DNA of 12,786 nt from a virus (taxonomy: Duplodnaviria; Heunggongvirae; Uroviricota; Caudoviricetes): IMG/VR virus record IMGVR_UViG_641736225_000032, one strand, 5' to 3'. Every line of letters starts with the position of its first letter. Within the stretch, counting starts at the first letter, position 1. The position numbers were made by a program. Of this stretch, positions 9,001-12,786 are shown in pieces.

Positions 9001-12000
9001 CCGTTGATGGTGTTCTCCGCAGGCAACGGGAGCCTCGCCGAATGAAGCCAGCCAGCGGCTTTTCGGCACTCATTTTGATGTGTACTTGTCACACACATCG
9101 GGATGAGTGAACGACGAAAACATCACGGTGATTTCGTCATGCCGCGATAAGAATGCGCCTCTTTGGGCAACTGGAGCCCTCTGTACAGCGGGTTATTGCG
9201 GCAAAGTTGTGATAAAAACGCGCCTCTTTGAGCAATTGAAGCTCACTGTAAAGCGGCTTATCACAGCAGGCTGTAACGGGCGCTCATCTTCTGGCAACTG
9301 AAGCCACCTGTACAGAGACCCGTTACGGCTGACCCTGAATGATTTCGCTCCGTGCAACTGAAGCACCCAGCGGAGTTATTCAGGTTTTTTTATTGCCCGT
9401 CCACCAGCACCACATCTGTAGCATTGATGCGTATACATTCGCCGTCAATTGCACCGTTCCGGCCCTCACCGTCACGCACCACAACAGAATGACCAGGCAG
9501 GCCATAACGCGCCACCTTTCGACGAACACCATCACCTGTTCCCTCACGCCGCTCATACACGTTAACCCGCTCCAGAAGACCGTCACGGACCATCGCTTCA
9601 AGTGTGCGCCTTGTTGATTCGAGCTGATATCGGTTGTTGTGTGAATCCATGCCATACAGCAGGTAAGCCACACCGGAGACATCAAACGGCGGGTTACCAA
9701 TTTCACCTCTGACCCACGCCAGATTGTCGGGAGTGAAGTAACTGAGGATCTCTTTTTTGTATTGCGTCAGTCTCATAGTGACCTTTCTTGTTGTAGGATG
9801 AATCCCTCATACAATAAGCCATAAGGCAAATTTTGAAAGGACAGAATCGGCGGGGTACAGATGATACGTGATGACAAGGCTGAAGCGCTGGAAGCACAAG
9901 GGTTATGCGATGGGTTGCGGCAATATGAGGCAAATATGAATATTCAAATTGTTGTGTTGTGAGGTACGCAAGATGAAAAAAATTGATTCTTTACGAATAA
10001 GTAAAGTAGCTATTATATCAGTATCTTTATTATTTCTTAGCGCGTGTTCTACAAATAATATTGAGAATATGCCGAGAGATGCGCGTGTAAAATTTGCTCT
10101 AATGAGGGCTTATTCAGATAACAAGTTTGATAATTCAACAGTTATCGGCGAAGTGTTAGGATTGAGTTGCGCCAGACAACTTGGAAAAACATTAGTAACA
10201 CCATTGCCAGGGGGAAGCGCTATTGCTACATCCTCTGAGGGCGACATTACTTCTGAGTCGGATGCAATACAGGACATGCGATATAAAGCCGCAATGATGG
10301 GAGGTGATGCCATAGTGAACGTTGTATGTAAATCAGGTGGTGTTGACTGGATTCATAACTGTTGGTCAACTGTTAAGTGCGTTGGTGATGTAATAAAAAA
10401 ATAACAGTTGCCATACTGAAGGTATTGATTAATACATGGAAACTGCAATTACGACGTGTGATTGCAGCTTACCGTTAGCTACCCCTGTTACAATTGCCCT
10501 CTTCCATCACAGCAAAATGCTACCCCCTTCACAGCCCCCCCTCGGAAGCCCCTCCGATGGGGTGAAAAATCCCTGAAAAAATGCGCAGAAAATTGCGCAA
10601 AAAACTGCGCAAATCGATCATAAAACCGATCACAAAATCGATCATAAAACCGATCACACAGACCAGCAGAGAAAAGCCAGGTATGACGCGGCTTGCAGGG
10701 GGGAAAGGCCACCGGAAAAAGTGCGCATTTTTCTCAAAAACGAAACGCAACAGGAAGCGCAAAACGAAACCGATACGCGATGATCGAAAAAGCGCGCAAA
10801 TTTACCGGATTCGGGTAAGCAATTTTGCCTGATTTGGGCAAAATACGGTGTCGCCGTAACAGTGACATTGACACCAAAACAGTGACACACAGGAGGCCCG
10901 ATGACCGAACGTTCACCAACAGAGATAATTCACGGGATTATTGAAGAGCAGGAGGAACGCGAGTTAATCCTCATGATTGAAGAGCAGAGAGAACGCCAGC
11001 ACAAACAGGAGGCCACGCAGCCGGACAGCGTGACCGCTAAAAATTATGCGCGTGTTGTTGCGGAAGTGATGCGCCGTGAAGGCACTGAACTGAACGGGCA
11101 GGACTGCTTGGTTATCCGTACCAGGGTGCTTGGTATGCTGGCGGCAAGGAGGCGGCAGGAGCAGCGACAGAACGCGGCCCCGTACCAGTGGCATAAGCCG
11201 GAGCGGTTACGGCGGTAACTCACTGAGATTAAAGCAAAGCTCAAATCTGAGATGGCTACATCCCTCACTTCTGAGGACTGTTATTCACAAACTACGAAAT
11301 TTTCGTAGTTTAACTTTCATCCAGTGCATCCCTGAATTACGGGTATATAACCACAGCCATTACGAGGTGATTGTTGATGCGTGATATTCAGCAGGTTCTG
11401 GAACGCTGGGGAGCGTGGGCGGCAAATAATCGCGAGAATGTGACCTGGTCATCCGTTGCCGCAGGATTTAAGGGGATTATTCCGGCAAAGATAACATCAC
11501 GCTCACAGTGCTGTGACGATGATGCGATGGTGATATGCGGGTGCATAGCCCGTCTTTACCGGAACAATCGCGATCTGCATGACTTGCTGGTTGATTATTA
11601 CGTGTTGGGGGAGACGTTCATGGCGCTGGCACGGAAACATGGGTGCTCTGACACCTGTATAGGTAAACGCCTTCACAAAGCGGAGGGGGTTGTTGAAGGC
11701 ATGTTGATGATGCTGGATGTGAAGCTGGAGATGGATCGGTATGTTGAGCGCGATTCAGTGACGGCATAACGCGCATAAAAAAACCGCAGCCATGAGGAAA
11801 CTGCGGTGGAGAAATACGGCTTGCCAATCAATCATGAAAAACGTAATCGCCTGATAATTATGCCACGAGACAAAGGACGGTGCACCCTGAATGGTCATAA
11901 TGACCACTCAGACCATCAAGGCAACCATAACGAACATCGTTACAGTTGGAGCTTTTACCCCGTTGGGGGAAAAGGCGCATACCTGAATCATCATTATGGT

Positions 12001-12786
12001 GATCAAGGGTATGTAAAGCCCACCAGCCTGATTAAAGGTTAACCGGAAAAAGCCAGGTATGGAGGGAGTGGTTAGCCACGAACAAGCCGGACACCGCGCC
12101 AGCAAAAACCACAGATTCGTGCTTTTCTTCAGCCAGGGTAAGAACGCCACGGGGATTAATCCGTCGTCTGGTGGAATCAGTCGGCAGCATGACGAACAGG
12201 CCGCGCAGCCGGACACCGCCAGCAGAAGGTATTATGATTTTCGTAATACCTTTAGCAAAGCGTGAATCATCATTACGGTAGGGATGGTCATAATGACCAC
12301 ACCTCCCCCCACCGGAACAGGGAGGATGACCTACGAAAATTTCGTAACCCCCTACACAAAAAGTGCAGGTTACTACCCGAAAAGTGTAGTGCCATTGCTG
12401 GGGCAAAAAAAACCGCAGTGTGATAACACTACGGCACGCCACCAAAGAAACATAACAAGAATCAGCAATGAGTAATACCTGTAAGCCTTCGGGGTGATTG
12501 TAACACATGAGCAATATTTTACCGGAAGCTGTTTTTCACTGGATCACGTATCGTTATGGGGATTCCCATATCGGAGAGCATCCACCAGCTTCATAACGGA
12601 TAACCGAAAAATGATAACGGTTAACCTGGAAAAAATTCCGGTGAATATTTGCCCTGACAGTTCCCATATCGGCGGCACACCTGAAAAAACCGTGTACACA
12701 AGGGTGTACACAATAAAAATCGTTATTACAGAAATACCAGTAATGACAAGCCCTTGATGCATATACTCAATGAGCAGATTCAACAT

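Follow-up and report, generated by a model that had tools for sequence, protein, structure and literature searches.

A hairpin module with a Chi octamer in the gene-free right end of a PICI-type satellite of Escherichia coli

Introduction

The closest described relatives of the island studied here are phage-inducible chromosomal islands (PICIs) of the EcCICFT073 type and capsid-forming PICIs (cf-PICIs) of the EcCIEDL933 type, with which it has in common a P4-like integrase, AlpA, an icd-like gene, a primase, SSB, PerC and a member of the family phrog_1561. The island is contained in the IMG/VR record IMGVR_UViG_641736225_000032 (Caudoviricetes), a stretch of 12,786 nucleotides hereafter called the window, which is 100% identical to the island between yicC and dinD of E. 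coli O157:H7. The subject of this report is its gene-free right-hand part at 11770..12543, for which a previous sequence-only reading had offered three options: a small RNA locus, a packaging (cos) region or the decayed right end of the element. We describe it as a real, largely ordinary feature, namely a non-coding right arm with a hairpin-plus-Chi module, a decayed slot and leftward terminators. The same module is present in EcCICFT073- and EcCIEDL933-type islands between the phrog_1561 gene and the right attachment site (attR), at 80-90% identity. In contrast to these islands, the one in the window lacks a lambda-type cos and genes for capsid, terminase or Rpp, possesses a Q gene and a P1-like c4/isrK-icd-ant immunity region, and has its module split from the Pal/attR partner by an insertion of ~490 bp.

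A second point of comparison is Chi, the signal that stops the DNA-degrading enzyme RecBCD. Its orientation rule comes from classical lambda genetics, and classical Chi needs neither a longer flanking 23-mer nor a hairpin array. With Chi of lambda red gam chi+ phage and of rolling-circle plasmids the present locus shares the exact octamer GCTGGTGG, which is dense here, and in cos-bearing relatives of the island Chi is oriented towards the terminase-free DNA end. Unlike classical Chi, the octamer of the window, whose activity is putative, is embedded in an invariant 23-mer that follows a hairpin array. To our knowledge, E. coli PICI-type satellites encode no Gam-like RecBCD inhibitor. A literature search combining Chi, RecBCD and PICIs yielded a single general review, and no description of the module was found in the literature searched.

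Non-coding arms of related elements are a third point of comparison. P4, a satellite whose primase is of the same type, likewise has non-coding repeats beside attP; they make up its cis replication region, crr, and follow the end of the main operon. We rejected this analogy, since the iterons (TGTTCACC) of the window island are located elsewhere, by the primase gene at 7266-7486, with none in the stretch; moreover, the module is also present in islands with other replication proteins. Lambdoid prophages have PR', short terminated RNAs and convergent small RNAs (sRNAs) downstream of Q (PMC4104026, PMC7547250), and in those of enterohaemorrhagic E. coli the "moron" region that follows Q/PR' encodes the convergent short sRNAs AsxR and AgvB (Tree et al. 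2014, PMC4104026). The leftward units predicted in the window resemble AsxR and AgvB in being short, in pointing towards Q, in ending at a strong terminator and in occupying an insertion-tolerant region just after Q, with promoter and terminator conserved while the body varies. They differ in having no sequence or Rfam similarity to these sRNAs, in being hosted by a satellite and in being predicted only.

Location of the stretch within the island

Most genomes are devoid of the island, and their dinD-side match starts exactly at window position 12772, inside yicC. The stretch, which is 230-1000 bp away from attR, is therefore inside the element and not chromosomal flank. The alignment to empty-site chromosomes, which the sequence-only reading had proposed for finding the right attachment boundary, thus gave that boundary at 12772. 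The att direct repeat is imperfect and 24 nt long (GAGCAGATTCA..); at attL it is the 3' end of yicC, and at attR a displaced copy of this. By sequence comparison, the element is a PICI-type phage satellite in the yicC 3' end that has the gene-free stretch at its right, and we suggest that the stretch be annotated as satellite non-coding right arm with the attR boundary at 12772.

The conserved hairpin module

Window positions 11880-12062 match 987 of 5426 complete E. coli genomes, which defines a conserved non-coding module (11887-12059) in about one fifth of them, common to classical and capsid-forming PICIs. Its position is always between the phrog_1561 gene and attR. The same site is used in EcCICFT073-type PICIs and in one cf-PICI; in the cf-PICI beside phoQ, the module comes after the terminase genes and a phrog_1561 gene of 93 aa. 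Two scans of species-representative genomes returned chance 17-mer matches only and no true homologue, and at this sampling the module appears to be confined to E. coli-level diversity.

For the comparison of modules, 53 distinct variants were taken from viral and metagenome contigs. Across these the module has sharp edges and three parts, which are four tandem hairpins (H1-H4), a 23-mer containing Chi and a short hairpin with an A-rich loop (Table 1; related loci are denoted by L numbers). The minimum free energy of the hairpin array is -46.9 kcal/mol on the plus and -44.6 kcal/mol on the minus strand (z -5.3 and -4.7, respectively), with none of 200 shuffles as stable. In L004/L005 the H1 palindrome is altered symmetrically from C/G to G/C; changes in H2 and H3 are of the compensatory and wobble kind; and in the L045 and L055 types entire hairpins (H1, H3 or H4) have been swapped in place for unrelated ones. 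These hairpin-for-hairpin swaps, together with the compensatory changes, favour conservation of structure over sequence. The 23-mer was intact in all variants retrieved without the 23-mer as bait, and in the A-loop hairpin the stem is kept while the loop length varies.

Such folding would also be expected if the module were a structured non-coding RNA gene or a 3'-untranslated region element of the rightward operon, with Chi incidental; the RNA might be a partner of the ProQ/FinO-family protein of the island, or a stabiliser of the upstream mRNA. The four stable hairpins (z -5.3), double compensatory changes in 4 of the 25 predicted pairs and the substitution of different hairpins at the same position, with structure kept over sequence, are in line with an RNA, as are the ProQ/FinO protein encoded by the island and the resemblance of the invariant, unstructured 23-mer between hairpins to a seed region. 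Nevertheless, Rfam searches of 11300-12786 with E values of up to 5 brought no credible match, five related loci were negative as well, and with Rfam 15, prophage anti-sRNAs included, only C4 and isrK (4210-4400) passed the gathering score over the window. Furthermore, neither strand of the module has a conserved promoter or U-tract terminator, a rightward terminator lies just upstream of the module in some relatives, the signals for one or the other strand conflict, and many module-carrying islands are missing the ProQ/FinO gene. We regard such an RNA as a possible but unlikely explanation of the module.

The module and the right-hand repeats could otherwise belong to the attachment region as operators or accessory sites, bound by AlpA/excisionase, IHF or a different island protein and serving excision and integration or promoter control. 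In every island type these sequences are directly inside the integrase arm-type repeats. The palindromes at the H1 and H4 positions have a common core, ..(C/G)ATAAT(G/C).., with symmetric changes; a direct repeat of 19 nt, TAA(A/C)GG(T/A)TAACC.., occurs three times, at 12033, 12594 and 12615; and all three forms of the module retain a -35-like TTTAC(A/C) together with a -10-like hexamer that lies inside the palindrome. However, the module is common to islands with different integrases and arm repeats, and the H1 palindrome is found at no other promoter or site of the island. Loop and stem sequences of H2 and H3 vary while pairing is kept, which is unexpected for protein sites, and the module of the window is ~700 bp from the att core, a distance that is due to the insertion. 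Taken as a whole, binding of such a protein is an improbable basis for the module.

It should be added that L003 (6240-6460), L002, L011 and L043 (8800-8990) carry one to three units of ~45 nt between the phrog_1561 gene and the module. Each consists of CTAACCCGTTGATATTTTCGG and a short hairpin, CCTCAATTTGAGG or CCCCCATTGGGGG; the units are satellite-specific and absent from the window.

Chi sites and their proposed function

Within the 23-mer, Chi occupies 12020-12027 on the minus strand, the core CCACCAGC being its complement. A second Chi is present on the same strand at 12582-12589, ~560 bp to the right of the module, where a diverged repeat of the Chi core and A-loop hairpin extends over 12579-12643. 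Islands with integrase arm repeats of five different kinds all have this repeat, and to the right of it they share nothing more up to the att region.

Chi sites were counted in the window (1-12771) and in L002, L003, L006, L010 and L043. The island contains 12 copies, compared with 0.36 in shuffles, and Chi is its most frequent octamer (rank 1 of 9513; Poisson p 3e-5 versus the E. coli background rate). One-base variants of Chi have 0-1 copies each, except GCTGGCGG with five. The density of Chi is ~5 times that of the flanking chromosome; related satellites have 0.7-1.3 Chi per kb and the adjacent chromosome mostly 0.11-0.23 per kb, the exception being the 2.2-kb flank of L001 with one Chi (0.46 per kb). 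Lambda and P4 have zero Chi sites. Another octamer, CTGGCTGA, is joint second in frequency, level with GGTGAACA; its nine copies (0.35 in shuffles) are dispersed on both strands, at sites including 699, 2536, 4968 and 8321 (plus) and 1467, 3795, 7976 and 12129 (minus).

In at least 22 loci, a lambda-type cosN directly precedes the phrog_1561 gene, and the module Chi is ~0.65 kb away. In these the cos is inverted relative to the module, and the terminase-free end points at the module Chi in the orientation recognised by RecBCD.

We infer that these octamers probably act as Chi, and we give a slightly better than even chance to the overall reading of the stretch as a non-coding right arm with a conserved end module and a variable slot, in which Chi most likely protects satellite DNA from RecBCD and promotes exchange and the leftward terminators insulate the island. 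Chi would stop RecBCD entering linear or rolling-circle satellite DNA and would load RecA; The concatemers on which packaging depends would thereby be spared, and cargo and integrase modules nearby would be exchanged more readily by homologous recombination. The slot between the two Chi repeats would be the cargo site, with only debris and a leftward promoter-terminator unit in this lineage. The leftward terminators would end short convergent transcripts and in this way keep antisense transcription out of Q. If functional, Chi would account for the survival of cos-packaged linear concatemers against RecBCD without an inhibitor of the satellite's own, and for the free exchange of cargo and integrase modules.

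Several observations weigh against this proposal. The cos-Chi loci, at least 22 in number, are homologous and therefore represent consistency and not independent observations; the Chi sites of the island are split 6:6 between the strands and give no directional signal; and the window island has no recognisable cos, which makes the argument from cos-Chi orientation inapplicable to it. The 23-mer is conserved far outside the Chi octamer and must therefore contain some other signal as well, and Chi accounts for no part of the four-hairpin array. The RNA strand signals of this array conflict, the minus strand folding better in 20 of 27 variants and several wobbles favouring the plus strand; strand assignment via folding energy and wobble pairs was dropped for this reason. 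Finally, the consensus scan did not call the predicted promoters of the leftward units discussed below, in which -35 boxes are missing.

More broadly, Chi saturation (~1 per kb) and the hairpin-plus-Chi end module that E. coli PICI satellites have beside cos and attP could together represent an anti-RecBCD, pro-recombination device, in which the hairpins are a new partner of Chi. The hairpin array might slow RecBCD or act in single-stranded DNA. We put this forward tentatively, as an idea that has perhaps one chance in a few of being right.

Packaging site and coding potential

Among the three options of the sequence-only reading, the cos region fared worst. Neither lambda cosN (GGGCGGCGACCT), with up to two mismatches, nor the P2/P4 cos, with up to three, has a match in the region, and local alignments to three PICI cos sites remained at shuffle level, their scores being reached by 51, 190 and 136 of 200 shuffles. 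Comparison with cos regions of helper phages, which had been suggested as a check, hence brought no match to lambda, P2/P4 or PICI cos. A resemblance to lambda cosQ-cosN noticed by eye at 12636-12690 (TTCCGGTGA..GACAGTT..CGGCGGCACACCT) failed the alignment test and was rejected. EcCICFT073 is reported to have two cos sites with lambda-like cosN (PMC6092414, PMC6739421). We located those of CFT073 in L043 at ~7668-7720 (plus) and 8425-8480 (minus), apart from the module homologue at ~8900-9110. A packaging site (cos or pac) would suit the position at the end of the element and the fact that the homologous segment in PICIs adjoins terminase or Rpp genes; yet module-carrying PICIs have their lambda-type cosN elsewhere, and similarity of the stretch to phages does not go beyond two gene fragments. 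For lambda and P2 types the cos reading is largely refuted, and a packaging site of whatever kind is very unlikely here.

The statement that the stretch has no convincing gene was borne out. For the open reading frames (ORFs) of 78, 68, 102 and 160 aa no Pfam or PHROG family was found, with the exception of one fragment match (a segment of 20 residues in the 68-aa ORF aligns with phrog_1561, at positions 13-32 of 93), and the 160-aa ORF had no tblastn match in phages. The Prokaryotic Genome Annotation Pipeline (PGAP)/RefSeq places hypothetical proteins at 11806-12042 and 12059-12265 (WP_000417228.1 and WP_000399368.1). The 78-aa frame is broken by indels between the forms of the module, and the 68-aa frame in L008 and L053-type relatives. 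The two RefSeq proteins are very probably spurious calls, predicted over the hairpin array and a gene fragment. With no family match and frames broken in relatives, the PGAP ORFs and the Cys-rich minus-strand ORFs were rejected, and no conserved gene was found in homologs.

A minus-strand hydrophobic peptide (MFVMVAL..), considered as a type I toxin, was rejected as well, on account of a polymorphic stop, a lost ATG and unrelated tails in a set of 50 variants. Among three relatives, substitutions at 11887-11945 fall mostly on third positions of the minus frame, with TVTMFV(M/V)VAL(M/I)VCVVI(M/I)TI conserved. The peptide has an in-frame TGA in the window and in three other variants, and in the L045 family its ATG is lost and the overlapping hairpin kept. 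That the stretch encodes small proteins, be it the 78- and 68-aa ORFs or this peptide, possibly as a toxin ending at the leftward terminator, would agree with the PGAP annotation and with the third-position pattern in the three relatives. It is at odds with the in-frame TGA, the lost ATG, the unrelated C-terminal tails and the lack of a Shine-Dalgarno sequence, as well as with the broken 78- and 68-aa frames and a family match limited to 20 residues. We consider such proteins highly improbable.

Leftward terminators and candidate transcripts

The scan of 11300-12786 gave five terminator-like sites, every one of them on the minus strand; shuffles had 1.7 +/- 1.3. Two of them are Rho-independent terminators of the leftward direction, at 11807-11783 followed by U7 and at 12435-12412 followed by U8. 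The former is the hairpin with a minus-strand U7 pointed out in the sequence-only reading and was called by the scan at 11783-11807; it adjoins the Q gene and is kept in all Q-carrying relatives. The minus-strand fold of 11771-11852 has z -2.1. A convergent transcript of ~74 nt may end at this terminator, with a predicted start near 11850 and end near 11777; its promoter and body are 93-99% conserved in Q-islands. For the second unit, the predicted start is near 12490 and the predicted RNA ~86 nt long (fold z -2.4). In L085 the -10 element and the terminator of this unit are kept although the body is only 74% identical, and a U.G wobble in its stem fits the minus strand only. Both units may be transcribed, and a small RNA locus, the first option of the earlier reading, is plausible because of these two leftward promoter-to-terminator units.

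The position immediately downstream of the Q gene would also be the expected one for a Q-dependent late leader, with a PR'-like promoter, Q-binding and pause site and terminator, as in lambdoid prophages. From Q to attR, however, the scan gave a single weak promoter-like site in the rightward direction and no intrinsic terminator in that direction; many islands without Q have the module, and Q itself looks like an insertion between an upstream palindrome and the hairpin module. A late leader is accordingly given very little weight. The palindrome in question, CTACGAAATTTTCGTAG at 11292-11308, is a perfect copy of the one at 12331-12347 (expected 0.04), ~60 bp upstream of the Q gene, and had been missed in the sequence-only reading. 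It recurs at module junctions in L003, L005 and L052, and could be an operator or a recombination joint.

The variable slot

The insertion that separates the module from Pal and the second Chi repeat is lineage-specific. In 21 distinct variants without it, a palindrome of the CGATATGGGGATCCCCATATCG type follows 37-48 nt after the module. The same slot holds ~260 bp in four variants, ~490 bp in the window lineage and ~1.3 kb in L044; the slot between module and palindrome is therefore variable. L044, a related Q-carrying island integrated elsewhere, has in its slot an intact ORF of 124 aa (5656-6030, minus strand) with no Pfam or PHROG match, possibly the cargo of which the window has kept remnants.

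The slot of the window is a patchwork of gene fragments and rearranged module DNA (Table 1). A search of the phage collection yielded two short gene-fragment matches only, one KilA-N-like and one antirepressor (Ant)-like, and the ORF of the former had no Pfam match. The two identical 17-mers reported earlier, ATGGTCATAATGACCAC, do exist, at 11891-11907 and 12284-12300, the second having been placed ~10 nt too low (12274). The other shared motif, TGAATCATCATTA(T/C)GGT, exists as well, at 11984-12000 and 12263-12279 instead of the ~11972 and 12254 given for it, and the positions confirm that the order of the motifs is reversed from one copy to the other. The palindromic core of the 17-mer does not occur again in the window, and none of 200 shuffles reached its count. 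The junction AGGG-ATGGTCATAATGACCAC at 12263-12300 is the same as in "form 3" modules of L055/L079. In L005, two copies of the CTACGAAA palindrome flank 226 bp that are deleted in the window, and L008 has a further deletion between AGCCGGACACC repeats. The repeats are thus what is left of a second copy of the module and of recombination events between short repeats; together with the gene fragments, these explain the "shuffled" motifs. The palindrome CTACGAAAATTTCGTAA named in the sequence-only reading was found as well, at 12331-12347. A decayed right end was hence the best of the three original options, and it holds for the ~490-bp patchwork; the conserved DNA at 11887-12059 is not decay.

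Table 1. Features of the right arm of the island and of its left neighbour (window coordinates)
Feature	Coordinates	Strand	Basis
Q antiterminator gene (left neighbour)	11371..11769	+	Pfam Phage_antitermQ, E 2.5e-50; RefSeq antiterminator Q family
Leftward intrinsic terminator, 9-bp stem 11783-11807 then U7	11776..11807	-	Terminator scan
Candidate convergent small transcript	11777..11865	-	Extended -10 TGGCATAAT at 11865-11857, read from sequence
Four tandem hairpins H1-H4	11887..12012		Folding, comparative changes
H1, palindrome TGGTCATAATGACCA	11887-11911		Folding
H2	11922-11948		Folding
H3	11949-11978		Folding
H4	11979-12012		Folding
Invariant 23-mer GTAAAGCCCACCAGCCTGATTAA containing Chi	12013..12035	-	Invariant columns, 27-sequence alignment
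Short hairpin with A-rich loop (ACCGG-AAAAAG-CCAGGT), right edge of module	12036..12059		Alignments
KilA-N-like gene fragment	12044..12166	-	blastn 86%/55 nt to HK620 hkbK, E 1e-6; tblastn 36%/47 aa
Lineage-specific ~490-bp insertion between module and Pal/second Chi repeat	12060..12551		Comparison of variants
5' fragment (~70 nt) of phrog_1561 gene	12149..12218	+	80-83% identity to start of 93-aa PICI gene
Ant-like fragment	12206..12265	-	blastn 86.7%/45 nt to Stx-phage ant; tblastn 65%/20 aa
Partial second module copy, H4 arm joined to H1 palindrome	12263..12300		Repeat comparison
Palindrome CTACGAAAATTTCGTAA, recurrent rearrangement junction	12331..12347		Also in L003, L052
Second leftward mini-unit (predicted)	12405..12505	-	Extended -10 TGTTACAAT at 12505-12497; terminator stem 12412-12435 then U8
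Degenerate palindrome (CGTTATGGGGATTCCCATATCGG) then second Chi-bearing repeat CATCCACCAGCTTCATAA; outside 11770..12543	12552..12596	-	Repeat comparison, Chi scan
Integrase arm-type repeats GTGTACACAA x2 (probable)	12692-12713		Repeat listing and att analysis
attR core	from 12772		Empty-site boundary

Gene content and other features of the island

Between its att repeats the island is ~12.6 kb long. It encodes a P4-like integrase (domains Arm-DNA-bind_3 and Phage_integrase), an AlpA-family protein (2357-2572; Phage_AlpA 25.2 bits at a cut-off of 21, also HTH_17), AntA, a D5/P4-type primase-helicase (5429-7252; D5_N/Pox_D5 domains), SSB, a ProQ/FinO-family protein, PerC, phrog_1561 (10901-11218, the intact paralogue of the fragment in the slot) and the Q antiterminator. 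No capsid, tail or lysis gene and no terminase or Rpp gene are found in the island annotation. Directly downstream of the primase gene, nine iterons of the P4 alpha type on both strands form a cluster that is very probably the replication origin of the island. A tyrosine integrase with att repeats, AlpA, its own primase with adjacent origin and a size of ~10-15 kb without structural or lysis genes are thus present; a packaging determinant of PICIs (helper-type cos, pac/TerS or Rpp) was not found among recognisable types. By this gene list the island therefore falls within the gene-content definition of Gram-negative PICIs.

The repeats GTGTACA(C/T)A are located at both island ends, inside attR and, in L001, between attL and int (2282-2335), and are probably the arm-type sites of the integrase. 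The right pair also folds as a hairpin, with T6 after it on the minus strand. In islands with other integrases this position is taken by different repeats (GGTGTAGT, GTGTATAG, GTTATACG and GTATCCTA).

The ProQ/FinO-family RNA chaperone is encoded at 8210-8677 (Pfam ProQ, E 2e-24). At 4210-4400, isrK (52 bits) stands beside the C4 antisense RNA (74 bits), with the icd-like gene after and antA before the pair, an arrangement like that of P1 immI. In Salmonella, IsrK is reported to control the AntQ antiterminator, and the island, which has isrK, also ends in a Q gene. Furthermore, the intergenic regions 9146-9330 and 10611-10658 contain three direct repeats of ~58 nt (64-79% identical) and four repeats of 12 nt (AAATCGATCATA/AAACCGATCACA).

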